From: Minisyncoccota bacterium
GTDB lineage: Bacteria; Patescibacteriota; Minisyncoccia; Phycocordibacterales; UBA5272
DNA length: 64,000 nucleotides
Assembly (NCBI GenBank): GCA_018063165.1
Contig: JAGOQU010000002.1
Location: forward strand, 3,048 to 67,047
Reading direction: 5' to 3'
Below the pieces are notes generated by a model, which saw only the letters and a program-made list of their open reading frames with translations, was not told where the DNA came from and ran no database searches. Made by a program: the position numbers and the translations under genes. Positions 2,529-64,000 of this stretch are shown one piece after another (positions within the stretch are counted from its first letter, which is position 1; each line of letters starts with the position of its first letter).

Positions 2529-4295
2529 ATGGGTCAACCAATTATTTCCTATTCAAAAAAAGGCTACATTTCGCCTTACAATAATCTCAGTAATGAGCTT
2601 GAAAATGGTACAAAACCTAATAATATTGGCACTTTTTCTCCTTCACAACCAAAAAAAGCTACATATAACTCTTGGACAGAAGCTTACAAAGATGCACATT
2701 TGAACTATGAAAACACACTTAAAAACAACAGAACCGGTAATAAATCTGTAGGAAAAGGTGAAATAGGACAAACAAAAGGTGTTTCTCCTGATATTGATCC
2801 AACAGGTATTGCAAATGTTACAAAATTACGACAAATGGGTTTTACTCCTGAGCAGATTATTACCTACACTAAACTTATTAAGTTTAATAGTGACAGCGTA
2901 CAGGATTTTCTAAAAAATGAAGAAGATAACACATACGTAGAAAAACCAACTGTAGAAAATGTAACAAAAACAGGGTATACAGCAAAACTTGAGCAAAAAA
3001 AAGAGGATACCTCCAAATCTGTTTCTTTTGCTCAAAAATATCGCGATCATGCAATGAAAATTGCCACAAGAACAACAAAAACTGAAAACACACAAAACAA
3101 AAAAGAAGAAGAAACACTTCAAAAAGTAAAGGAATTTATTCCAGAAAATACACCTAGGCCACCTACAAATAAAATACTTCGCGGTAAAAGTACTTCAAAT
3201 ACAACAAACAAAAAAGTTATACAGGAACCTATTGCAATAAATAAAAACAAAACAGAAGAAATTAAAACAACAGACATCCCTAATCCAGAACTAACCTCAA
3301 CTTCATTAGATACTATTTCAACTAATGAAAACATACTTTTACAAAAAGTAGTAACTCCTGTTGTAACAATAGACACAATAAAAGAAGGTGTTAGTACAGA
3401 AGAAACAATACATTCTTCAGGAACTACAGAGAATGTAGAAATTCCTACTTCAGAAAAAATCGATAAAAACCCTTTAACTATTTCACTTAATAACCAAGAA
3501 GAAGTACCTAAACCTGCAACAAATCCATTCTTAAGAAGAATGTTTACTGAGATAAGAGATACAAAAAATCCTATATCACAATCACAAGCTGAAGAATCAC
3601 CTACAGTAAAACCAATTTCTGCACCTGAAGAAACTAAGACAGCGGTAGTTGAAGTCGGTACATCACCACTCAACACTGAAAAAGTGACCGTGCTTACTCC
3701 AAACTTAATAGAACAAACAGTAGGTCAAGAAACAAGGGAGGGGAAAGTTGCCATTGTTCTTGACGTTCTTGTCAAACAAAGACTAAATAATAGCGCGGCT
3801 ATGTCTGGACCTTCAGCTACCAGTGTAAAGATTGAAGATACAACAACTACAATTCTAGAACATGTCGCACATAAAGAAACAATAACTTGGAAAGACTCTT
3901 TACGAGGTAATGAGATGACACTTTCAATTGTTGAAGATTTACAACCATCTATAGAAAAAGATTTTATAACGAAATACGTTCCCTCATATGTAGATCCAAA
4001 CAATCCTTCTTCTTGGGCTTCTATTTCTAACTTTAGTATCTACGAAATTATTCACGGTGCTGAAGCTGTCTACGGACTTAGTGATCAATCACGATCAGAA
4101 ATTAGTCATCTCATAAAACATCTTGGAGCAATAGACCAAGCTACAGATATGTCACAAGATACAAAAAAATATGGAAATGATGGTTTTGCAACATATGAAG
4201 ACTATATACTAAGTAATCAAAAAATGACTATACACGATTATTATAATGAAGTACGTAGTAGGATAGCGTCAGCAGAAAAGAAAGAACATAATTAA
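2529..4295 (+). CDS. Hypothetical protein, 588 aa, Thr/Lys/Glu/Asn-rich low-complexity, no transmembrane segment
   Basis: Long ORF with a strongly biased composition (TTKTENTQNKKEEE, TSTSLDTISTNE); no recognisable catalytic motif. Confidence 0.45.
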   Translation: MGQPIISYSKKGYISPYNNLSNELENGTKPNNIGTFSPSQPKKATYNSWTEAYKDAHLNYENTLKNNRTGNKSVGKGEIGQTKGVSPDIDPTGIANVTKLRQMGFTPEQIITYTKLIKFNSDSVQDFLKNEEDNTYVEKPTVENVTKTGYTAKLEQKKEDTSKSVSFAQKYRDHAMKIATRTTKTENTQNKKEEETLQKVKEFIPENTPRPPTNKILRGKSTSNTTNKKVIQEPIAINKNKTEEIKTTDIPNPELTSTSLDTISTNENILLQKVVTPVVTIDTIKEGVSTEETIHSSGTTENVEIPTSEKIDKNPLTISLNNQEEVPKPATNPFLRRMFTEIRDTKNPISQSQAEESPTVKPISAPEETKTAVVEVGTSPLNTEKVTVLTPNLIEQTVGQETREGKVAIVLDVLVKQRLNNSAAMSGPSATSVKIEDTTTTILEHVAHKETITWKDSLRGNEMTLSIVEDLQPSIEKDFITKYVPSYVDPNNPSSWASISNFSIYEIIHGAEAVYGLSDQSRSEISHLIKHLGAIDQATDMSQDTKKYGNDGFATYEDYILSNQKMTIHDYYNEVRSRIASAEKKEHN

Positions 4296-38714: not shown

Positions 38715-38758
38715 CAAATACAAAACAACGACACCAAAGTGTCGTTGTTTTGTATTTG
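38715..38758 (+). terminator. Long perfect hairpin immediately 3' of the tRNA
   Basis: caaatacaaaacaacgacac-caaa-gtgtcgttgttttgtatttg (20-bp stem). Confidence 0.6.
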
Positions 38759-38856
38759 TGATCGAGAGAAAGCCAACTACTTGGCTTTCGTGTAAGAATC
38801 GAATAGGGGTCGAGGAGTCTCCTGTTTTATGTATTCATAAAACGAGACGAGGTGAC

Positions 38857-38872
38857 CGATTCCTGCCGAGAG
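38857..38872 (+). repeat. Direct copy of the tRNA 3' end (cgattcctgccgagag), ~160 bp downstream of the original at 38697..38712
   Basis: 16/16 nt identity; the similarity extends into the following 'acaaatacaaa'. Confidence 0.75.
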
Positions 38873-38909
38873 ACAAAATACAAATAACTTACTTTTAACA
38901 GTAGGGGTT

Positions 38910-51040: not shown

Positions 51041-51079
51041 TGCGCAAAATATGTCTTTTGTTTACAAAAGACTATTTTG

Positions 51080-51170
51080 CGGAGAATGTGAGATTCGAAC
51101 TCACGGGCCTAATAAAAGGCCGACGGTTTAGTAAACCGTTGATTTAAGCCACTCATCCAATTCTCCTGTA
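51080..51170 (-). tRNA. Type-II (long variable arm) Ser-like tRNA with atypical anticodon arm; manual fold gives anticodon ACU
   Basis: Minus-strand fold: acceptor GGAGAAT/ATTCTCC, T-arm GTGAGTTCGAATCTCAC, variable arm CGGCCTTTTATTAGGCCCG, anticodon arm ACGGT-TTACTAA-ACCGT that is part of a perfect palindrome ACGGTTTA-C-TAAACCGT. Confidence 0.5.
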
Positions 51171-51678: not shown

Positions 51679-52686
51679 ATGAATAAACATAAAATTCTAG
51701 CCATAATAATGGCAGGGGGTATAGCTTTAACAGGAATATATGTTTCTTTTGCTGAAGAAAATGACGAACTTTCTTTTGATTTAAAGTTTGGACAAAGGGG
51801 AACACAAATTACTAAACTTCAAGATTTTCTTATAGAAAAGGGATATCTTAACACAAATTCTACAGGGTATTTTGGAAGAATGACTGCAAACGCCGTAGCT
51901 CGTTATCAAAAAGAAAATAACTTAGATTCTGTTGGTCGTGTCGGCCCACTTACACGTAAAGCTATGAATAAAGACATGCGAACTTTAAAAGAATTTAAGA
52001 AAAAAGGAGATGACCACTCTACACAAAATTCTCTTGATGTAGATGGTGTATATTCAGGAACACTTCCTTGTGCATCATGTTCTGGAATAGAGACAACACT
52101 TGAACTTAACAAAGGAACGTACACTCTTGTTGAAAAGTATCTAAAGAGTGACACTCTTGTATCTACTACAACAGGTTCGTTTACTTGGAAAGATAAAAAT
52201 GTAATCCAATTAACCGGTATAGCAACCGGAACACGATCGGTAATGTATAAAGTTGGTGAAAATACAATAACACAGCTTAATATGGATGGTAATATGGTTA
52301 CAGGAGAAACTGCTCCTTTCTATACGTTAAAGAAAGTTGTTGCGACAGGGTATTTTGTTGAAGATAAGAAGTGGAAAATGGTAGAACTTGAAGGAAAACC
52401 AATAACTGGTTCTGTTGAGACGTATTACATAGTGCTTCACTCAAAAGAGAAAAGATTAGAAACAAAAGCGGGATGTAATCAAATGGGTGGTATGTATACA
52501 TTAGATGGATATAGATTCAAAACATCAGGAGTATTTTCTACAATGATGGCATGTGAGAATATGAATGATGAGCAAGCATTTTCAAAAGTATTAGAACTTG
52601 CTGATAACATTTCATATTCTGAAACTAACCTATCTTTCAACAAAGCTAGAATGGCTCCACTTGCGAGATTTGAACTAGTGAAGTAA
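51679..52686 (+). CDS. Peptidoglycan-binding domain + NlpE-N-like + META/HslJ-like domain protein
   Basis: PG_binding_1 pattern 'GTQITKLQDFLIEKGYLN...GYFGRMTANAVARYQKENNLDSVGRVGPLT'; 'LPCASCSGIETTLEL' NlpE-like. Confidence 0.55.
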   Translation: MNKHKILAIIMAGGIALTGIYVSFAEENDELSFDLKFGQRGTQITKLQDFLIEKGYLNTNSTGYFGRMTANAVARYQKENNLDSVGRVGPLTRKAMNKDMRTLKEFKKKGDDHSTQNSLDVDGVYSGTLPCASCSGIETTLELNKGTYTLVEKYLKSDTLVSTTTGSFTWKDKNVIQLTGIATGTRSVMYKVGENTITQLNMDGNMVTGETAPFYTLKKVVATGYFVEDKKWKMVELEGKPITGSVETYYIVLHSKEKRLETKAGCNQMGGMYTLDGYRFKTSGVFSTMMACENMNDEQAFSKVLELADNISYSETNLSFNKARMAPLARFELVK

Positions 52687-55754: not shown

Positions 55755-55772
55755 GTGCCCTCGCGTGGAATC
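55755..55772 (+). repeat. Direct copy of the tRNA-Arg(TCT) 3' end (gtgccctcgcgtggaatc), ~145 bp beyond the gene
   Basis: 18/18 nt identical to 55919..55936. Confidence 0.75.
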
Positions 55773-55869
55773 TGTCACAAATCTGCCTCGCTTTGCTCGA
55801 AGCAGATTCGCGATCCCGTATTCGCTTCCACCGTAAGTGACGAAGGTCACTTACTTTCTGTTGACATTG

Positions 55870-55917
55870 TTAATATAAAAAGTACCCACTGATTACAGTC
55901 GGTACTTTTTATATTAA
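55870..55917. terminator. Long perfect hairpin adjacent to the tRNA-Arg(TCT) 3' end
   Basis: ttaatataaaaagtacc-(14 nt)-ggtactttttatattaa. Confidence 0.55.
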
Positions 55918-55919
55918 TG

Positions 55920-55991: not shown

Positions 55992-56127
55992 GTAAAGCAC
56001 AGTATATATACTATCAGAAATTTTAAAAAGAGGCGAGAAGTATAGTAAGTACACCTTGTTGTTTTATCGGAATCGGTCACGTAAACAATTTTTGATTACA
56101 AAAAATAGAAGTCTACCCTTGATTCCA

Positions 56128-56225
56128 AGTCCAAGACATAACTTTACTAAGTTAGAATTGAACTTGCTAGTTCTCCGCATTCGAATCCTCACGTACGACA
56201 CGCAGGTGTCGTACTTATTTCCCAC
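56128..56225. repeat. Structured repeat module homologous to 46951-47045
   Basis: Shared 'caagtccaagacataac'; three consecutive hairpins with compensatory changes relative to the 46.9-kb copy (aacc..ggtt vs aact..agtt; gaatc-tgct-gattc vs gaact-tgct-agttc; N9-gcag-N9'). Confidence 0.6.
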
Positions 56226-56274
56226 TAAAATACAAAAACAGAATCATTTGATTCTGTTTTTGTATTTTAGTGGG
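56221..56274. terminator. 26-bp perfect hairpin overlapping the tRNA-Val 3' end
   Basis: cccactaaaatacaaaaacagaatca-tt-tgattctgtttttgtattttagtggg. Confidence 0.6.
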
Positions 56275-57710: not shown

Positions 57711-57747
57711 AAAAAACCTCAATCAGAAACGATTGAGGTTTTTTTTA
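57711..57747 (+). terminator. Intrinsic terminator after rplS
   Basis: aaacctcaatc-agaaac-gattgaggttt + T-run. Confidence 0.6.
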
Positions 57748-57919
57748 TTTTGTTTGATTTACTAGATGAGCTAATAATATCGGGAATTGGTCATCAAATA
57801 TACATAATACGAAATAGGAGGACTTGATCACAAAGTCTATTTTGATTACAAAAATATAGGACTTTGCGATCCCTACTCAAGTCCATATAAAAGTGATAGA
57901 AGAACTAACAATATCGGGA

Positions 57920-57992
57920 CTTGGTCACCTCGTCTCGTTTCAGGATTATCTGAAACAGTAGACTCCTCGACCCCTATTCAAGTCCTCACGCA
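57920..57992. repeat. Structured repeat module, inverted homolog of 38795-38856
   Basis: Reverse complement reads 'gaataggggtcgaggagtctactg-tttcag..ctgaaa-cgagacgaggtgacc' versus 38801 'gaataggggtcgaggagtctcctg-ttttatg..cataaaa-cgagacgaggtgacc' (the hairpin stem differs, with compensatory changes). Confidence 0.6.
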
Positions 57993-58014
57993 TGACACGC
58001 AGGTGTCATGCTTC

Positions 58015-58074
58015 CTGGGCACCAATGTAAAAAAGCAACATCATTTGATGTTGCTTTTTTACATTGGTGCCCAG
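58015..58074. terminator. 29-bp perfect hairpin incorporating the tRNA-Leu 3' end
   Basis: ctgggcaccaatgtaaaaaagcaacatca-tt-tgatgttgcttttttacattggtgcccag. Confidence 0.6.
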
Positions 58075-58693: not shown

Positions 58694-58959
58694 TATGTAT
58701 CTCCTTTTGTGGTGGTTGTGATATTTAAAAAGAACAGAACTTTATACTAGCACTTTGCTTAGTATAAAGCACTCTTCAAAAAAATAGAAATATGTGTTAG
58801 AGTAAAGACCTGATTCTGTGGTCCACACATGGAATTAGCGTTTCCTAATCCTTCTATTTAGAAGTGTATTATTTGTTAGGAATTTAGATGAGATTTTACT
58901 TCCTGTGTTTTGTGTAATGAAAGTAAATTCTCACTCAGAATATAACTGAGAATTAAGAT

Positions 58960-59032
58960 GGTGCCTATAGTGTAATGGTTAGCACTAGGGTTTGTGGAAC
59001 CCTCAGTTCGGGTTCAAATCCCGATAGGCACA
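58960..59032 (+). tRNA. tRNA-His (anticodon GTG) with extra 5' G
   Basis: G-GTGCCTA...anticodon arm AGGGT-TTGTGGA-ACCCT, T-arm CGGGTTCAAATCCCG, acceptor TAGGCAC-A. Confidence 0.7.
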
Positions 59033-59080
59033 CACGTGAAAAAAGACAGCTTTGGCTGTCTTTTTTCGTGTGTGCCTATC
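59023..59080 (+). terminator. Long hairpin incorporating the tRNA-His 3' end
   Basis: gataggcacacacgtgaaaaaagacagc-tttg-gctgtcttttttcgtgtgtgcctatc. Confidence 0.55.
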
Positions 59081-59398
59081 GAGTAACAAAACCAAAGTTT
59101 TGTTGCGTGGATTTGAAGCGAAAAAGTGGCTACGAAATAACTACAAAGAAAAGCTGAACCCCTGACTTTTCTTTGTAATTATTTTGTCACTTTTTCTGGG
59201 GGTCGAGGAGCAATGTTTTTATTGAGCACAAAATGTGAAAAGAGAAACATGTGCGAGGTGACCAAATCCCGATTGAATTTTACACCAGAAACCTCCTTAT
59301 CAAAAAAAAGGGTTTAGTTCTCACATTTTGGTACCCTTTAGAGAATTACAGAGGAGATTGGAACTGTACAATAATTTTATTCTGAGTATAATAAAATC
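59033..59398 (+). repeat. Cassette-array structured repeat unit U1 (between tRNA-His and the cupin gene)
   Basis: Contains the inverted tRNA-His 3' copy 'gtgtgcctatc...ggatttgaa', the 'ctacgaaa' box, a covarying hairpin, the 'tgggggtcgagg...gaggtgaccaaatcccgat' module and a promoter-like box at 59341-59392. Confidence 0.6.
59341..59392 (+). promoter_or_regulatory. Conserved promoter-like box upstream of the cupin gene
   Basis: 'gagaattacagaggagattggaactgtacaat', shared with 62206-62238; -35-like ttacag, -10-like tacaat; second 'tataat' at 59387. Confidence 0.4.
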
Positions 59399-59785
59399 AT
59401 GAAAGGATATATTATAAATATTGAAGAAGAGACATTAAAAAATACAGATTATAGACGTGTTTTATATACAAGTAAACACAGCCAGCTTGTACTCATGTGT
59501 GTTATGCCGGGTGATGAAATTGGTGAAGAGATCCATCACTTAGATCAATTTATTCGTTTTGAAGAAGGTGAAGGAAAAGTTATTTTTGATGGTGTCGAAT
59601 ATGGTGTTTCTGCTGATATGGCTGTTGTTATTCCACAAGGTATGAAACATAATGTTATAAATACGAGCACTGTACCACTTAAACTTTACAGCATTTACTC
59701 TCCACCTGAGCATAAAGATGGCATAGTTGAAAAAACAAAAGCAGACGAAGTTGAAGAACATTTTGATGGAGTGACTACAGAGTAA
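59399..59785 (+). CDS. Cupin-domain protein (128 aa)
   Basis: 'PGDEIGEEIHHLDQFIRFEEGEGKV...AVVIPQGMKHNVINTS' two-motif cupin pattern. Confidence 0.7.
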   Translation: MKGYIINIEEETLKNTDYRRVLYTSKHSQLVLMCVMPGDEIGEEIHHLDQFIRFEEGEGKVIFDGVEYGVSADMAVVIPQGMKHNVINTSTVPLKLYSIYSPPEHKDGIVEKTKADEVEEHFDGVTTE

Positions 59786-60105
59786 AGTAATTTATATTCT
59801 TATTATCTGAGTTCTAACCTCATCTACGACAGTACACACGTGAAAATAGACGGCTTCGGCCGTCTATTTTCGTGTGTGCCTATCAGTAATAATGTCCAAA
59901 CATTGTTACGTGGGATTTGAACGAAACGTCGGTCTACGAAAATGAGATGTAAAAATTGGGTGCAGTATTTTTAGATTTCATTTTTGTCGACGTTTCCCGG
60001 GGTCGAGACTTTGAGACTTTGTTTGAGTCGCAAGACGAAAAAGAAAGTCCAAAGTGGTGACCAAATATCCCGATAGGCATACTAAAGGTGTATACTTGAT
60101 TTATA
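59786..60105 (+). repeat. Cassette-array structured repeat unit U2
   Basis: Box A 'tgagttctaacctcatctacgacagtacac' (59808-59837), hairpin H1, 'gtgtgcctatcag', H2 'taataatgtccaaacattgtta', 'gggatttgaacgaaacgtcggtctacgaaa', H3, 'cccggggtcgag', H4, 'ggtgaccaaatatcccgataggca'. Confidence 0.65.
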
Positions 60106-60398
60106 TGAAAACTTTAAAAACATTTATAATTGTTTCTATTCTTACACTTGGGATGACCACATCAGTTTTTGCGGCTTGGTGGAACCCTTTTACGTGGTTT
60201 CAAAAGAAAGTTGTACCAACACAACAAGTAAAACAAAATACAGTACCGATAAATTTAACCAAAGAGGTAGCGTCAAGTACTAATATTTTAACTAAAAATT
60301 CCAACGCCCAAGTTAAGCAGGCATTTAATTTAAAAAAATTTGGAATATCTTTTGAGTACCCAAATAGTATCTTAGATATAAATATAAAGCCGAACTAA
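60106..60398 (+). CDS. Small secreted/anchored protein with conserved 'AAWWNPFTWFQKKV' N-terminal motif
   Basis: Start taken at 'MKTLKTFIIVSILTLG' (the ORF track begins at 60054 inside the repeat); paralogous N-terminus to 61141..61962. Confidence 0.45.
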
Positions 60399-60440
60399 CT
60401 TCCACTTCAGGGTGATGAGAGTGGATTATCAGAAAGTGTT

Positions 60441-60857
60441 TTGATTACGGAGAATACTATCTCTAGCCCGAGCGAAGGAAATATTAAATATGGAAATAAT
60501 TTTACTTTAGGGGTAAATATTACCATGAGTGGAGATATTGAGTTTGCTAAAAAATCTACCGAAATGAAAAGAATAGTCATTGATAACCCTAATCTAGAGG
60601 TATATTTAACGTTAGAAAATCCTGAAATAAATAACAGAGTTATCTACCACATTTATGACACTAAGAGAAACTGGCATATGTACATTACCTCTAGTTACAG
60701 TATTGATAATACTAAATTGTCGTCAGATCAAATTTCCTATACAAGAAATGTTTATAAAGAATCCATTAAATCAATATTACCAATTATAAATAGTATTAAA
60801 AATACCAATAATGTTGTATATCCTATTGGTACCAAGCTTAAAGCCGGAGGGGTTTAG
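60441..60857 (+). CDS. Hypothetical protein (138 aa)
   Basis: ORF only. Confidence 0.4.
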   Translation: MITENTISSPSEGNIKYGNNFTLGVNITMSGDIEFAKKSTEMKRIVIDNPNLEVYLTLENPEINNRVIYHIYDTKRNWHMYITSSYSIDNTKLSSDQISYTRNVYKESIKSILPIINSIKNTNNVVYPIGTKLKAGGV

Positions 60858-61140
60858 AATTTAAACTACAACAATAGATGTGAGTATTGTGCGGGTTGTT
60901 TTTCATTTGGTATGCCTATCAGTAATAATGTCCAAACATTGTTACGTGGGATTTGAACGAAACGTCGGTCTACGAAATTATTATTCAAAAATTGAGTGCA
61001 GTATTTTTGAATAATATTTTTGTCACTTTTTCTGGAGGGCGAGGAGCAATGTTTTTATTGAGCACTAAGTACGAAAAGAAAAACATATGCGAGGTGACCA
61101 AATCATAAATGAGTTATTTAAAATGGTATACTGTATCAAT
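60858..61140 (+). repeat. Cassette-array structured repeat unit U3 (5'-truncated: box A and the left arm of H1 missing)
   Basis: 'ttttcatttggtatgcctatcagtaataatgtccaaacattgttacgtgggatttgaacgaaacgtcggtctacgaaa', then covarying hairpin aattattattcaaaaa...tttttgaataatattt, 'ggagggcgaggagcaatg...gaggtgaccaaat'. Confidence 0.6.
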
Positions 61141-61962
61141 ATGAAAATAATAAAAACATTCACCATTATTTCTGTTCTCACCATCGGTATTACTCAATCA
61201 GCTTTTGCTTTATGGTGGAACCCATTTACGTGGTTTCAGAAGAAGGTGATATCAGTACAGCAAGTGCAACAAAATAACACAAATACTCATGTTCAGAATG
61301 TTTCGAGTACATTAAATGAATCTCTCTCTACAGATAATACAAGACCAGATAATGAAGTTAGTTTTAAAATTATCAAATGTAATCCAAAAACATATGATGA
61401 AAATTATTTCATTAAAGAAAAACCTTGCGTATCTGATGTTAATTCTATTGATAAAGAAAGAGAATTTAAAGCTTCAAAAATAATCAAAGAAATTGAACCA
61501 GAAGGATCGCCTTGGAGGGAGGGGGTGACGCTTTATGTTTCTGATGAGAGATATCAGTTGCTTAACGTCAACTTTGGTCCAAAAATTGGATATATAGTCG
61601 TTGATACTGTTAATAATAAAGTTTCAGATCGTTTAGTGTTTAGGGGCTCTGATTTTGTTCATAAGGATAATAAAAGAATTATTTTTACTTCAGGTCTTCG
61701 TTCTAATCCCTCAGTTTCATTAATGCAATATATATATGGAACAGAAAAACTTGTTACAATAAAGGATTCAGAAATAGTGGAACCAAAAACATATCTCGAT
61801 GGACAATCTTTAGAAACTGATAATGGAATAAAAGTTCTGGCATCATCTACTGATTCTATAACACTTGGTATCTATGATAAAAATGAAGCTATTAAAAAAC
61901 CAGAAATATATTGGGTGTCATATAAGCAAATAGGGACAAAAGTTATTGATTTGAATAAATAA
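61141..61962 (+). CDS. Secreted protein (274 aa), paralog of 60106..60398 at its N-terminus
   Basis: Start at 'MKIIKTFTIISVLTIGITQSAFALWWNPFTWFQKKV'. Confidence 0.5.
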   Translation: MKIIKTFTIISVLTIGITQSAFALWWNPFTWFQKKVISVQQVQQNNTNTHVQNVSSTLNESLSTDNTRPDNEVSFKIIKCNPKTYDENYFIKEKPCVSDVNSIDKEREFKASKIIKEIEPEGSPWREGVTLYVSDERYQLLNVNFGPKIGYIVVDTVNNKVSDRLVFRGSDFVHKDNKRIIFTSGLRSNPSVSLMQYIYGTEKLVTIKDSEIVEPKTYLDGQSLETDNGIKVLASSTDSITLGIYDKNEAIKKPEIYWVSYKQIGTKVIDLNK

Positions 61963-62244
61963 TTTGAGTTCTAATCCCGTCTACGACAGTACACAATTTT
62001 AACAAAAGACATAAACTAACAGTTTGTGTCTTTTGTTTTAAAAATTGTAGTGCCTATCGGGATTTGAACCGCGGACCGCAAGTTACGATCAGCAACTGAA
62101 GGTTTCGAGCCTAGCAAGGCGAGAGGCAAATCCCATTAAATGGTTTGAATAAAATCTCTTTATTAAACGGGGGGATTTTTAATCACAACTTTTACATACC
62201 TAATCGAGAATTACAAACGAGGTTGGAACTGGTATAATGTACTA
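61963..62244 (+). repeat. Cassette-array structured repeat unit U4
   Basis: Box A 'tgagttctaatcccgtctacgacagtacac', hairpin, then uninterrupted inverted tRNA-His 3' copy 'gtgcctatcgggatttgaacc' (21/21), and the promoter-like box 62206-62238. Confidence 0.6.
62206..62238 (+). promoter_or_regulatory. Promoter-like box upstream of the HIT gene
   Basis: -35 'ttacaa' (62211-62216), 16-nt spacer, extended -10 'tggtataat' (62230-62238). Confidence 0.45.
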
Positions 62245-62742
62245 ATGTCAAATTATGAAGCTACAACAAAAGAAGGTAAGTGTGTTTTTTGTGGAATAGT
62301 TACTGGAACGATTCCGGTTGCAGGTAAGTTTTGGGAGAATGATGAGTTTATGGCATTTTTAGCTATAGATCCAAATACAGAGGGTTTTACATGTGTAATA
62401 CCAAAAGAACATTATGGGAGTGATGTATTAAAAATGCCTGACGAGGTATTATCGAGATTTGTAATCGCTTCAAAAGAAGTTGTTCAATTACTAGAAAAAT
62501 ATTTTACAGATGTAGGTCGTGTTGGCCTTATGATGGAGGGGACAGGAATTGATCATGCTCATATCAAGTTAGCCCCATTTCATGGTACAGAAAATTTAAA
62601 GGATGGAGGTTGGCAACAATATCTAAGTGGTAAAGAATTTTGGTTTGATAAGTATGAAGGATGGATTTGTTCTGGCGGTGGGCCAAAAGCTGATCCAGAG
62701 AAATTAAAAATTCTTGCTGAGGGAATTAGAAAAGTTAGTTAG
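62245..62742 (+). CDS. HIT (histidine triad) family hydrolase
   Basis: 'CVFCGIV' zinc-like N-terminus and HIT motif 'GIDHAHIKL'. Confidence 0.7.
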   Translation: MSNYEATTKEGKCVFCGIVTGTIPVAGKFWENDEFMAFLAIDPNTEGFTCVIPKEHYGSDVLKMPDEVLSRFVIASKEVVQLLEKYFTDVGRVGLMMEGTGIDHAHIKLAPFHGTENLKDGGWQQYLSGKEFWFDKYEGWICSGGGPKADPEKLKILAEGIRKVS

Positions 62743-63047
62743 TTGAGTTCTAATCCCGTCTACGACAGTACACCAAATGTAAAATCGCCGTTTAGGCGAT
62801 TTTTCATTTGGTGTACCTATCAGTAATAATGTCTAAACATTGTTACGTGGGATTTGAACGAAACGTCGGTCTACGAAAATGAGATGTAAAAATTGGGTGC
62901 AGTATTTTTAGATTTCATTTTTGTCGACGTTTCCCGGGGTCGAGGTTAAGAGGTTTTGTTTGAATCCAGAGGACGAAAAAGAAAACCCTTAACGGTGACC
63001 AAATCCTGACGAACTTTTTTAAATAACAGATGGTATACTATTTAAAT
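62743..63047 (+). repeat. Cassette-array structured repeat unit U5
   Basis: Box A; H1 (different sequence from U2 but same flanks); ~110 bp identical to U2 (H2 through H3 to 'cccggggtcgag'); H4 with a compensatory stem (gttaagagg...cccttaac vs U2 actttg...caaagt); 'ggtgaccaaatcc'. Confidence 0.65.
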
Positions 63048-63953
63048 ATGAAAAAAATAATTTTATCAGTTTCTATACTTCTTTCTTGCTGTTTTAATCT
63101 TTATGCTGAAAATGCATCTACTACAGACAAGGAAAAAGTGATGGAAAAAATGGAAATATTTGATAAAGCAATCAATCAAGGGGATGTATCGAAAGTACAG
63201 TCACTTATTTCTTCTAGTAACACTAATTTACAAATAGCAGTTAAAGATAGAATTAGATATCCAATCAAGTTCAATTTTTACGTTAGTTCTGCTGATGAAG
63301 ATGTTCAAGCAATTAGTCCAAACGTATTTAAATATGTAGGAGCTTTCGATGCAAAAACAGACGAGATAGAAATAAAAAATTTCCCTGTTTATTTTACTTT
63401 TGAAAAAACAACAAATGGAGAATTTTTTATTGTTGATACTGACTTTGTTGATAAATTAAATTCAGGTCCAGGAGATGTTGTTAACGAAGTATTTTCACAA
63501 GCAAATATTCAAGATGTTGATAATTTTTTTAAAAATTCAAAACATTTTTTAGTTATTTTTATACTACTTATATTTTTTTGGCTCTTCATGTTTAATGATT
63601 GTCTAAAAAGAGATTTTGAAAATAAATGGCTATGGGTATTATCTTTTATAATAGGAAGTATAGCAACTGCATTTTTGTATTACTTCACAATTAAGAAAAA
63701 GGATATTGATCAAAATAGTTCAAGTAAACAAGATTTAAAAAATATTTCAAGTGAAGAAGGCTTAACAGTTAAGGAAAAAACAGTTTTAATATTTTTAAGT
63801 TTATTTATTCTTGGTTTACCTGGTGCTATTATGTACTATGTTTGGCGTAAAAAGTATCCAACAAAAGCAGAACAAGCAAAGCATATTTCGAGAGTAACGC
63901 TTTTCATTCTGTTTGTTATTTCTATTTTTATTCTAATAAAAATAAGCCCTTAG
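63048..63953 (+). CDS. Membrane protein with signal peptide and C-terminal TM helices (302 aa)
   Basis: Start at 'MKKIILSVSILLSCCFNLYA'; C-terminal hydrophobic helices. Confidence 0.45.
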   Translation: MKKIILSVSILLSCCFNLYAENASTTDKEKVMEKMEIFDKAINQGDVSKVQSLISSSNTNLQIAVKDRIRYPIKFNFYVSSADEDVQAISPNVFKYVGAFDAKTDEIEIKNFPVYFTFEKTTNGEFFIVDTDFVDKLNSGPGDVVNEVFSQANIQDVDNFFKNSKHFLVIFILLIFFWLFMFNDCLKRDFENKWLWVLSFIIGSIATAFLYYFTIKKKDIDQNSSSKQDLKNISSEEGLTVKEKTVLIFLSLFILGLPGAIMYYVWRKKYPTKAEQAKHISRVTLFILFVISIFILIKISP

Positions 63954-64000
63954 AGGAATTTAAGAAGATGAAGCTATCCCAATTCTAACCCCGTCCAAGA
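63954..64000 (+). repeat. Start of a further repeat unit (U6, truncated by the window end)
   Basis: 'ccaattctaaccccgtccaaga' resembles box A (ttctaa[ct]ccc[ga]tc). Confidence 0.4.

Follow-up and report, generated by a model that had tools for sequence, protein, structure and literature searches.

A repeat array downstream of tRNA-His in a Candidatus Pacebacteria genome, read as a putative tRNA-seeded flexible island

Bacteria of the candidate phyla radiation (CPR, Patescibacteria) have tiny genomes with few recognisable mobile elements, and how they exchange accessory genes is largely unknown. We analysed a stretch of 64,000 nucleotides from a Minisyncoccota bacterium (GenBank assembly GCA_018063165.1, contig JAGOQU010000002.1, positions 3,048 to 67,047; hereafter the window), in which small genes alternate with repeated structured spacers downstream of a tRNA-His gene. 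The locus is best read as the tRNA-proximal part of a hypervariable island in a Candidatus Pacebacteria (CPR) genome. It is not an integron. Our preferred explanation, to which we give a probability of about 0.45, is a flexible island seeded at tRNA-His in which copies of a lineage-wide tRNA-trailer element serve as spacers, the units are joined at tRNA-end-like junctions and the modules are reshuffled afterwards.

Structured elements matched to tRNA genes

The tRNA-His(GTG) gene at 58961-59033 (+) is the proximal anchor of the island (ARAGORN; 66.4 bits with the Rfam tRNA model). Small same-strand genes and repeated spacers alternate 3' of this gene up to the window end and for about 1.8 kb further. 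Each spacer is a mosaic of four modules: a short conserved sequence (box A), an intrinsic terminator, a structured element (SE) and a promoter. Two kinds of promoter are used, a short TG-extended -10 box (TGGTATACT or TGTATACT) and box C, which is a terminator-like hairpin followed by TTGGAACTGGTATAMT. The initial annotation had described a repeat array 3' of tRNA-His, and all of the features it listed are present. Units U1 to U5 were recovered by repeat finding, alignment and blastn; after them a fourth box A copy leaves the window at its end. By blastn within the window, whole units are found only at 59.0-63.05 kb.

The SE is about 85-215 nt long and contains three or four helices. At its start the last ~20 nt of the neighboring tRNA are repeated in antisense, interrupted at the acceptor/T-stem boundary by a hairpin of about 25 nt (H2). 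The part ahead of H2 (T'a) is complementary to the acceptor 3' strand, and the part behind it (T'b) to the T stem and T loop. Next come a long hairpin (P2, not always present) and the P3 core (GGGGTCGAG, a variable hairpin and GGTGACC), and the element closes with the tRNA 3' end repeated in sense orientation from a point within the T loop. In the array, box A is followed by a 15-20-bp hairpin and then by GTGCCTATC...GGGATTTGAAC, the complement of the tRNA-His 3' end; the 3' arm of the terminator hairpin runs on into the next module. As first described, this inverted copy is undivided in U4 (21/21) and broken by the ~25-nt hairpin in U1, U2, U3 and U5. Each unit closes with ..GGTGACCAAATC.., a partial direct copy of the tRNA end, and direct CAAATC(CCGAT..) copies stand at the end of each of U1-U5. 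The claim that the units end in a partial direct copy of the tRNA-His 3' half is thereby borne out.

Of the seven tRNA genes in the window, five (Arg(gcg), Arg(tct), Val, Leu and His) have a terminator and an SE behind them, and the SE arms match the tRNA in question. Both tRNA-Ser genes have no SE. The terminator and SE-Leu are located at 57771-58064 (-). The left arm of SE-Leu is the complement of TTCAAGTCCTCTCCTGGGCACCA, split by H2, and three SE right ends (that of SE-Leu and two partial ones) stand in a row behind tRNA-Leu. The terminator and SE-Val, with arms matching tRNA-Val, are found at 56061-56269 (-), and those of Arg(tct) at 55755-55918 (-), where the right arm equals the tRNA end (18/18) and the left arm is decayed. 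The terminator and SE behind Arg(gcg) lie at 38716-38874 (+); its right arm repeats 16 nt of the tRNA end, and the P3 core is as in SE-Leu, with the P3 base in common. Within positions 1-58900 no SE copy was found except right behind tRNA genes. The window copies thus lie only behind tRNA genes or in the island, which is not the dispersal of a widespread repetitive extragenic palindromic (REP) repeat that the initial annotation had named as a possible outcome, nor that of a miniature inverted-repeat transposable element (MITE).

The match between an SE and its tRNA was counted over 59 tRNA genes in the window and in related loci (given L numbers below), with an exact match of at least 9 nt to the last 26 nt of the tRNA sought within 400 nt downstream. 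An inverted copy of the gene's own 3' end was found at 37 of the 59 genes and in 8.2% of mismatched tRNA/downstream pairs. A direct copy was found at 27 of them (mismatched pairs, 8.5%). The SE arms also track changes in tRNA-His between genomes, namely CCGG in L003, TTCGAAT in L023 and GCC to GCT... in L036. Because the SE trails most tRNA genes and each copy is fitted to its own tRNA, it is not specific to cassettes.

Several oddities were recorded at the tRNA genes themselves. The tRNA-His has A at discriminator position 73 and an encoded G at -1; the window gene (58960-59036) is followed by CAC, not CCA, and the close relatives L006, L022 and L041 encode CCA. In L015 (1775-1812) and L019 (777-814) a perfect 19+19-nt palindrome, GTTCAAATCCCGATA.GTA|TAC.TATCGGGATTTGAAC, composed of the tRNA-His 3' end and its complement, occupies the usual site of the terminator hairpin directly after tRNA-His. 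At 51079-51166 (-) ARAGORN called a tRNA-Ser whose anticodon is ACT and thus has A at position 34. The bacterial tRNA-Ser for AGY codons normally has GCU, and an ACT anticodon is unusual. An orphan fragment resembling a tRNA 3' end (AGTTCAAATCTCGCAAGTGGAGCCA) is found at 52652-52676 (-), about 70 nt downstream of the SE-less tRNA-Ser(tga), and may be what is left of an earlier event at that gene.

The predicted folds are stable and favour one strand. The unit with SE-2 (59800-60090) folds at -112.9 kcal/mol on the + strand (z = -9.3) and at -91.4 kcal/mol on the - strand. The best-preserved SE, in L040, folds at -91.8 kcal/mol (z = -11.4), and its closing helix is predicted to be the acceptor stem plus T stem of tRNA-His with a free single-stranded 3' ACCA. 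A further fold gave z = -14.0. In an alignment of 20 P3 cores the base helix GGUCG/UGACC is invariant. The second P3 helix is 93% paired with 38 double-change cells, compared to 12.8 ± 2.7 after shuffling (0 of 500 shuffles reached 38), and shifting the partner columns destroys the pairing. With terminators excluded, the sense strand is more stable in 22 of 23 SEs, by 9.6 kcal/mol on average; G.U pairs number 98 in the sense and 28 in the antisense folds of these 23 SEs (Wilcoxon p = 3e-5). This sense-strand bias indicates that the SE fold is under single-strand selection. The selected strand could be RNA or sense-strand DNA, two cases that orientation does not separate because an SE always points as its tRNA. 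A second SE type (L038 11900-11925; L022 ~3960-3985; L004; L043) carries G tracts right after the antisense arm, e.g., GGGAGAGGGGTCGGGAGAACGGG. This start fits a G-quadruplex motif in a genome that is otherwise AT-rich.

The right edge of the element is fixed. With one mismatch allowed in the search pattern, 38 distinct P3 cores end in GGTGACC with T-loop-derived sequence immediately after, and the junction falls between tRNA positions 56 and 57. Near-identical interiors are found with different tRNA arms, of Arg-gcg (L036, L044), His (L040) and Val (L047). Such reassortment is poorly explained by ordinary homologous exchange since only ~7 nt are conserved at the edge. Empty and filled sites were also found. 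In L006 tRNA-His is directly followed by ACCAAT-boxC, and in L040 and L041 a terminator and SE lie between two copies of CAAAT(AT)CCCGATAGGCAC, which are direct repeats of 19-21 nt. The full 19-21-nt direct tRNA copy is present in L040, L041 and L023, and L019 has two terminator-SE units in tandem. The locus therefore has the marks of a tRNA-anchored island: an intact tRNA gene at one end, partial direct copies of its 3' end, and occupied and empty sites with an att duplication. U3 is a chimera of U2 and U1, and the genes behind U2 and U3 are related by tandem duplication; it was concluded that recombination of modules also occurs.

Gene content behind tRNA-His is highly variable. Among 12 syntenic loci with the order rluA, rplS, tRNA-Leu, tRNA-His, a homolog in another syntenic locus was found for 10 of 69 open reading frames (ORFs) downstream of tRNA-His (counted over the first 6 kb at most) and for 22 of 27 upstream. 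The distance from tRNA-His to a conserved GH15-family gene ranges from ~1.4 kb (L041) to more than 9 kb. The comparison with related genomes that the initial annotation had proposed therefore shows a locus that is not stable. The island content is accessory, with GNAT acetyltransferases, methyltransferases, type I restriction-modification, NADAR, TspO, cupin and HAD proteins. HIT, cupin and ddl genes recur in other genomes in other surroundings, and their ends are not identical. Type I restriction-modification operons were noted between box A/box C modules in L010 (613-7459) and L024 (1655-7522), and these flanks place defence genes in the same flexible pool.

Contigs of close relatives break at this locus, and the repeats explain assembly breaks at tRNA loci in these organisms. 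No strain-level gain or loss of a cassette was seen among these contigs, which stop at or near tRNA-His or an SE. One difference is informative. In L051 (GCA_020050275.1, 98.6-99.3% identical) a segment of 580 bp (1219-1798) replaces 40 bp of the window (57747-57786), between rplS and the SE-Leu series. It carries a gene of ~100 aa and its own SE-like right end GACCGATTCCGAAC, and divergence from the window starts directly after GATGACCAA.

Anatomy and gene content of the array

The box A pattern GAGTTCTAAYCCCRTCTACGACAGTACAC has three matches in the window (59809, 61966 and 62745) and none in 100 shuffled sequences. Copy 1 (59809-59837, +) has one mismatch and begins 23 nt past the stop codon. 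Copies 2 (61966-61994, +) and 3 (62745-62773, +) are exact and begin 3 nt and 2 nt past it, giving a range of 2-23 nt in the window. Copy 4 (63982-64000, +) is the variant ATTCTAACCCCGTCCAAGAcagtacac that leaves the window; in L001, a contig that continues the array, a terminator and ddl come next. The statement that a full unit begins with box A at the stop codon holds for U2, U4 and U5. It does not hold for U3, which is without box A, or for U1, which follows the tRNA. Of 47 distinct box A copies, 38 lie within -6 to +80 nt of the stop of a same-strand ORF, and box A is also found behind the housekeeping gene ddl. The 47 copies have a hairpin and SE-like sequence next to them in 12 cases, box C in 14, a hairpin alone in 5 and something else in 16. 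In a scan of one genome per species, box A was found only in Patescibacteria metagenome-assembled genomes. In a gene family of 96 aa, box A is fused to the stop codon in L020 and L038, not in L006, and homology ends exactly at the stop.

Box A and the tRNA-His 3' end precede the same sequence (ACCAATCAATAAA.ACT-boxC) and both contain GTTC(A/T)AATCCCG, which puts box A in the position of a tRNA end. The initial annotation went further and read box A as a T loop plus the 3' half of a tRNA. This reading was rejected: 43 copies show no consistent T stem, the loop TTCTAAT would have a pyrimidine at position 57, and no copy lies within a called tRNA gene in the 24 loci of the genome scan; the would-be tRNA would end in ..GTCTACGACA. 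Should the genome contain a tRNA that ends in ..GTTCTAATCCCGTCTACGACA, box A could again be taken for an att scar, left by this second tRNA. The ideas that box A is one half of a palindrome, or an antisense target, were also discarded, as no antisense partner was found in the window or the related loci. Long box A forms have 58-135 nt inserted between TTCTAATCCCGT and CTACGACAGTAC, and several share the interior ..CACAAGGGTATTGCTAAAAACATAGTCGC.. (L017 1324-1427; L006 4886-4990 and 6293-6373; L036 12695, 13194 and 15409; L018 1213; L005 1331). Ahead of about 15 box A copies stands a conserved motif of ~50 nt that starts with TATAAT about 55 nt upstream. A structured RNA formed by long box A and the upstream motif was considered and dropped on account of a weak consensus fold (-9 kcal/mol) with little covariation.

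U1 starts with a terminator hairpin (59031-59072, +; repeat search) whose stem reaches into the tRNA 3' end. SE-1, of the His type (59072-59276, +; alignment and fold), consists of T'a (59072-59081), H2 (59082-59107), T'b (59108-59118), P2 (59119-59198), the P3 core (59199-59263) and the right arm (59264-59276), all on the + strand. A box C-like module (59289-59392, +) with a hairpin, a conserved upstream region and TATAAT 6 nt before the ATG leads into the cupin gene (59399-59785, +; 128 aa, Cupin_2, Pfam E = 3.5e-15). In U2 the terminator hairpin (59834-59877, +; inverted repeat and fold) is followed by SE-2 of the His type (59876-60079, +; alignment and fold) and by the extended -10 box TGTATACT (60089-60096, +; read directly from the sequence) 8 nt before the ATG. 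The gene behind it (60105-60857, +; ORF list) encodes a secreted protein in one frame broken by TAA at 60396-60398; the gene is a pseudogene, or else the nonsense mutation is recent. The 97-aa ORF (60105-60398) and the 138-aa ORF (60441-60857), both on the + strand, had been listed as separate genes and are corrected here to one split frame; the cupin and HIT assignments of that list are confirmed by Pfam. U3 has a hairpin (60880-60911, +) with no box A ahead of it. The chimeric SE-3 (60912-61104, +) is U2-like in its 5' part and U1-like in its 3' part, and for this reason its P2 base is mispaired. The -10 box TGGTATACT (61124-61132, +; direct repeat) precedes a gene for a secreted protein of 273 aa (61141-61962, +; ORF list). 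In this gene the promoter and signal-peptide region duplicates 60083-60240 in tandem (75% identity over 158 nt). The 138-aa ORF was also considered as the C-terminal portion of a paralog of the 273-aa protein; this was ruled out, since the proteins have no similarity.

The terminator hairpin of U4 (61993-62048, +; inverted repeat) is followed by SE-4 of the short type (62050-62134, +), in which an unbroken complement of the tRNA-His end leads through 56 nt of interior to GGCAAATCCC. Box C (62151-62238, +), a terminator-like hairpin with the TTGGAACTGGTATAAT promoter that is common to many related loci, precedes the HIT-family gene (62245-62742, +; 165 aa, Pfam). This gene and its box C recur in L009 with 83% nucleotide identity. 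In U5 the 3' arm of the terminator (62768-62816, +), GGTGTAC, is complementary to the end of box A. SE-5 of the His type (62813-63006, +) shares 85-94% identity with SE-2, and the changes in its P3 are compensatory. The -10 box TGGTATACT (63031-63039, +; read directly) precedes a gene for a membrane protein of 301 aa (63048-63953, +), also present in the identical contig L001.

The -10 box lies 6-9 nt before the ATG in the island genes, without a Shine-Dalgarno sequence. It is TG-extended at 60089, 61124, 62231 and 63031 and a plain TATAAT at 59387; the stretches from -10 box to ATG are 59387-59401, 60089-60107, 61124-61143, 62231-62247 and 63031-63050. Given this spacing, the mRNAs are predicted to be leaderless. 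Every gene has its own promoter and its own terminator, and promoterless cassettes served by a shared Pc promoter are not found in the array.

L001 is an identical 10.9-kb contig from another assembly, in which the array extends past the window end. The order there is the membrane protein gene, box A and terminator, ddl, box A, a 155-aa gene, and box A and terminator, followed by housekeeping genes (CDP-alcohol phosphatidyltransferase family, cdsA, acpS). An ORF of 149 aa without Pfam match, rplS and rluA adjoin the array. An assembly artefact was ruled out, as the identical sequence is present in two NCBI assemblies and one Logan contig.

Origin and propagation of the units

Repeated tRNA-targeted integration and attC-like cassette sites were the two origins first suggested for the array, together with the remark that no integrase is encoded in the window. 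Motif and homology searches agree with that remark. A motif scan, Pfam searches of 124 ORFs and phmmer/hmmsearch runs found no tyrosine recombinase in 387.6 kb (the window plus related loci); six-frame translations of the 387.6 kb gave no match at E <= 10 to lambda Int, P4 Int or XerD. The islands of ~40 loci likewise contain no integrase of the tyrosine or serine recombinase type. In L023 the motif scan picked up one serine recombinase ORF, which lies beyond rluA and outside the island. The window encodes no transposase. The only transposase-like ORF among the ~40 loci is an IS200/IS605-type TnpA-like ORF (MKREYIRADHSVYLCDYHLVLVTKYRR..) in the island of L017 (2842-3300, -). Tandem units in L019, the direct copies, and the empty and filled sites of L006 and L040 speak for repeated tRNA-targeted integration, and the lack of a recombinase in 388 kb speaks against it.

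The integron/attC reading did not survive. Cassette content varies as in an integron (10/69 vs 22/27 shared ORFs). The integrase, the attC form and the promoterless cassettes are all missing in the array. By eye, the GGGATTTGAAC arm does not fit the attC motif RYYYAAC and has no GTTRRRY partner. A related system may be imagined that acts on folded single strands, in which the SE is the analogue of attC, the tRNA gene the analogue of attI, and the recombinase is encoded elsewhere. The antisense and sense arms would fold into a duplex imitating the double-stranded tRNA 3' end; the recombinase would bind the P3 core, exchange strands at the T-loop junction and move units of promoter, gene, box A, terminator and SE. 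Selection on a one-strand fold, an orientation fixed relative to the tRNA, and a GGTGACC junction invariant in 38 copies fit such a system. So do SE-2/SE-5 and SE-1/SE-3 homologies that stop right after CAAAT(C), window genes that are each followed by an SE (the last ones excepted), and the tandem accretion, empty and filled sites and variable gene content; target-imitating arms also recall, by analogy, the folding of CTX-phage attP(+) and attC. However, no recombinase is found in 388 kb and the cassettes have their own promoters. Many island genes elsewhere have box C only, or box A without an SE, and the Arg, Val and Leu tRNAs have an SE without a cassette. In addition, the ends of HIT and cupin are not identical between genomes, and the junction is at the inner end of the closing helix, whereas that of attC is at the outer end. 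We consider such a system unlikely.

The SE may instead act at the RNA level, as a tRNA-like trailer made by terminator read-through and cut by tRNA-processing enzymes. It would serve as an insulator, a processing signal or a decoy that mimics an acceptor/T-stem minihelix (with a free 3' ACCA in the best copies); box A would be a 3'-untranslated-region tag or the core of a small RNA, and the island would vary by homologous replacement after DNA uptake. The sense bias follows the direction of transcription although neighboring tRNAs are on opposite strands, P3 and the hairpins covary, and the acceptor-like ends in L040 have a single-stranded ACCA. SEs are kept at orthologous tRNA sites between genomes, ~15 box A copies have TATAAT ~55 nt upstream as expected for an independent small RNA, and no recombinase was found. 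The SE lies, however, between a terminator upstream and a promoter downstream, and its transcription is a prediction. Its arms are decayed in the window at Arg-gcg, U3 and U5; it is not evident why a processing signal should copy its cognate tRNA; and Rfam has no match. In Rfam 15 only tRNAs pass the gathering threshold, with nothing credible at E <= 5 in 58900-64000 and no family in 19 related loci. A fixed junction and a shared interior with different arms are also hard to obtain by homologous exchange with ~7 nt at the right edge. On balance this explanation, too, is improbable.

Very unlikely in our view is a pile-up of non-autonomous MITE-like elements (SEs, perhaps with box A and its long forms) that target tRNA T loops or tRNA-end-like sequence through a transposase encoded elsewhere. 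Inverted-repeat arms, a length of ~200 nt, a hairpin-rich interior, nested and tandem elements, insertions within box A (the long forms), fresh and decayed copies side by side, reassortment of interior and arms, and the TnpA-like ORF of L017 all agree with it. A MITE, however, brings its own terminal repeats; the SE arms are specific for the target and vary with the adjacent tRNA, and neither inherent terminal inverted repeats nor an associated transposase or REP-associated tyrosine transposase (RAYT) was found. Over 58.9 kb of the window, copies are absent except at tRNA genes or in the island, and no transposase was found in the window. Box A and the SE are absent from viral, phage and plasmid collections. 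A phage or plasmid origin was rejected on the same searches: box A is absent from IMG/VR and has no match in phage and plasmid collections; 16-mer matches of SE arms in IMG/VR are at chance level and no SE was found there by blastn.

The preferred explanation, a tRNA-His-seeded flexible island, would work as follows. Each small accessory gene would form its own transcription unit with a leaderless promoter, box A at the stop codon and a terminator. The SE would normally lie directly behind tRNA genes, where the closing helix of its sense-strand fold would recreate the acceptor and T stems. The His-type SE, together with box A and the terminator, would have been propagated between island genes. 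Genes may enter and leave by recombination with breakpoints at GGTGACC|T-loop and at box A edges, following the logic of tRNA-seeded additive islands, and homologous and unequal recombination between the repeated modules would then reshuffle them. We infer that the junctions are recombination points and that an enzyme acts on them.

Several observations weigh against this explanation. The joining enzyme is hypothetical, as 388 kb contain no recombinase. About 24 nt of box A are nearly invariant, a conservation not accounted for by the model. An element integrating at the T loop would need a matching tRNA 3' end for each tRNA type, which is difficult to square with one interior being found at different tRNAs. 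SEs persist at orthologous tRNA sites in genomes that are ~80% identical, with a strand-biased fold, and could be mainly functional RNA without a role in mobility. Among the strains compared, no pair differs by the gain or loss of one cassette whose two ends are defined. Breakpoints at module edges are also expected under plain homologous replacement, with homology ending there.

The locus represents a recurring architecture: a tRNA-anchored island, a 3'-end tag (box A) and a tRNA-matched SE with a fixed T-loop junction. Variable islands anchored at tRNA genes are known; a tRNA-matched antisense/sense element with a core, reused as a spacer, is new with respect to Rfam and the literature searched. 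Full-text literature searches returned no description of such tRNA-trailing elements in CPR. It is conceivable, if rather doubtful, that the SEs form an undescribed class of Patescibacteria elements that copy each tRNA 3' end, antisense and sense, around a hairpin core. They might be the working part of a recombinase-light, tRNA-templated cassette system, or an RNA family in which each tRNA has its own mimic, with acceptor/T-stem ends and an ACCA tail. If so, CPR would have a new mechanism, either of genome plasticity or of RNA biology linked to tRNAs. SEs that are recombination sites would make a new cassette system; SEs that are RNAs would make a new tRNA-mimic family. The repeats may also be used as markers for flexible islands in metagenome-assembled genomes.

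Comparison with known systems

An attC site is an imperfect hairpin of 57-141 nt with R'' (RYYYAAC) and R' (GTTRRRY) boxes, and an array of attC sites without an integrase is termed a CALIN (cluster of attC sites lacking an integrase). The array resembles integron arrays and CALINs in its same-strand, mostly single-gene units, in a repeated imperfect palindrome beginning at the stop codon, with a fold that favors one strand, and in gene content that differs between relatives. Unlike attC, the spacers are multi-helix structures of ~200 nt without R''/R' boxes, and the arms of the palindrome reproduce a tRNA end. Each gene has a promoter of its own, IntI, attI and Pc are absent, and the element is also found behind tRNA genes that have no cassette. 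The forked hairpin of CTX-phage attP(+) and attC are single-stranded sites that imitate a duplex target. The SE resembles them in that two inverted segments form a duplex with the target sequence in a strand-specific manner. This is a resemblance only: the SE has no phage or recombinase context, and its target would be a tRNA 3' end instead of dif or attI.

REP sequences, bacterial interspersed mosaic elements (BIMEs) and Correia elements are likewise structured, mosaic and nested intergenic repeats between terminators and promoters. In contrast, the repeats described here are not dispersed, their arms are tRNA-specific and no RAYT or transposase is associated. The RtT RNA, an Rfam family, is associated with the 178-bp repeats downstream of E. 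coli tyrT. It shares with our array repeated units right behind a tRNA gene and a direct copy of the tRNA 3' end in each unit. It differs in having no inverted copy, core hairpin or intervening genes, and no RtT match was found here by Rfam search.

tRNA-like processing signals include plant mitochondrial t-elements, mascRNA and viral tRNA-like structures. The SE is similar to these as a predicted acceptor/T-stem minihelix mimic between transcription units, with 3' ACCA in the best copies. In the SE, however, the T loop is replaced by two long hairpins and the Rfam tRNA and mascRNA models do not score it; its expression and processing are hypothetical.

The nearest concept is that of the Prochlorococcus tycheposon islands, in which partial tRNA copies mark past integrations and most islands are without an integrase at a given time (bioRxiv 10.1101/2020.12.28.424599). 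Tycheposons are multi-gene elements with integrase and replication modules, whereas the units described here are single genes, no integrase was found in ~40 loci, and the partial tRNA copies are paired with an inverted copy and conserved hairpins. Under the preferred explanation, both are additive islands seeded at a tRNA gene.

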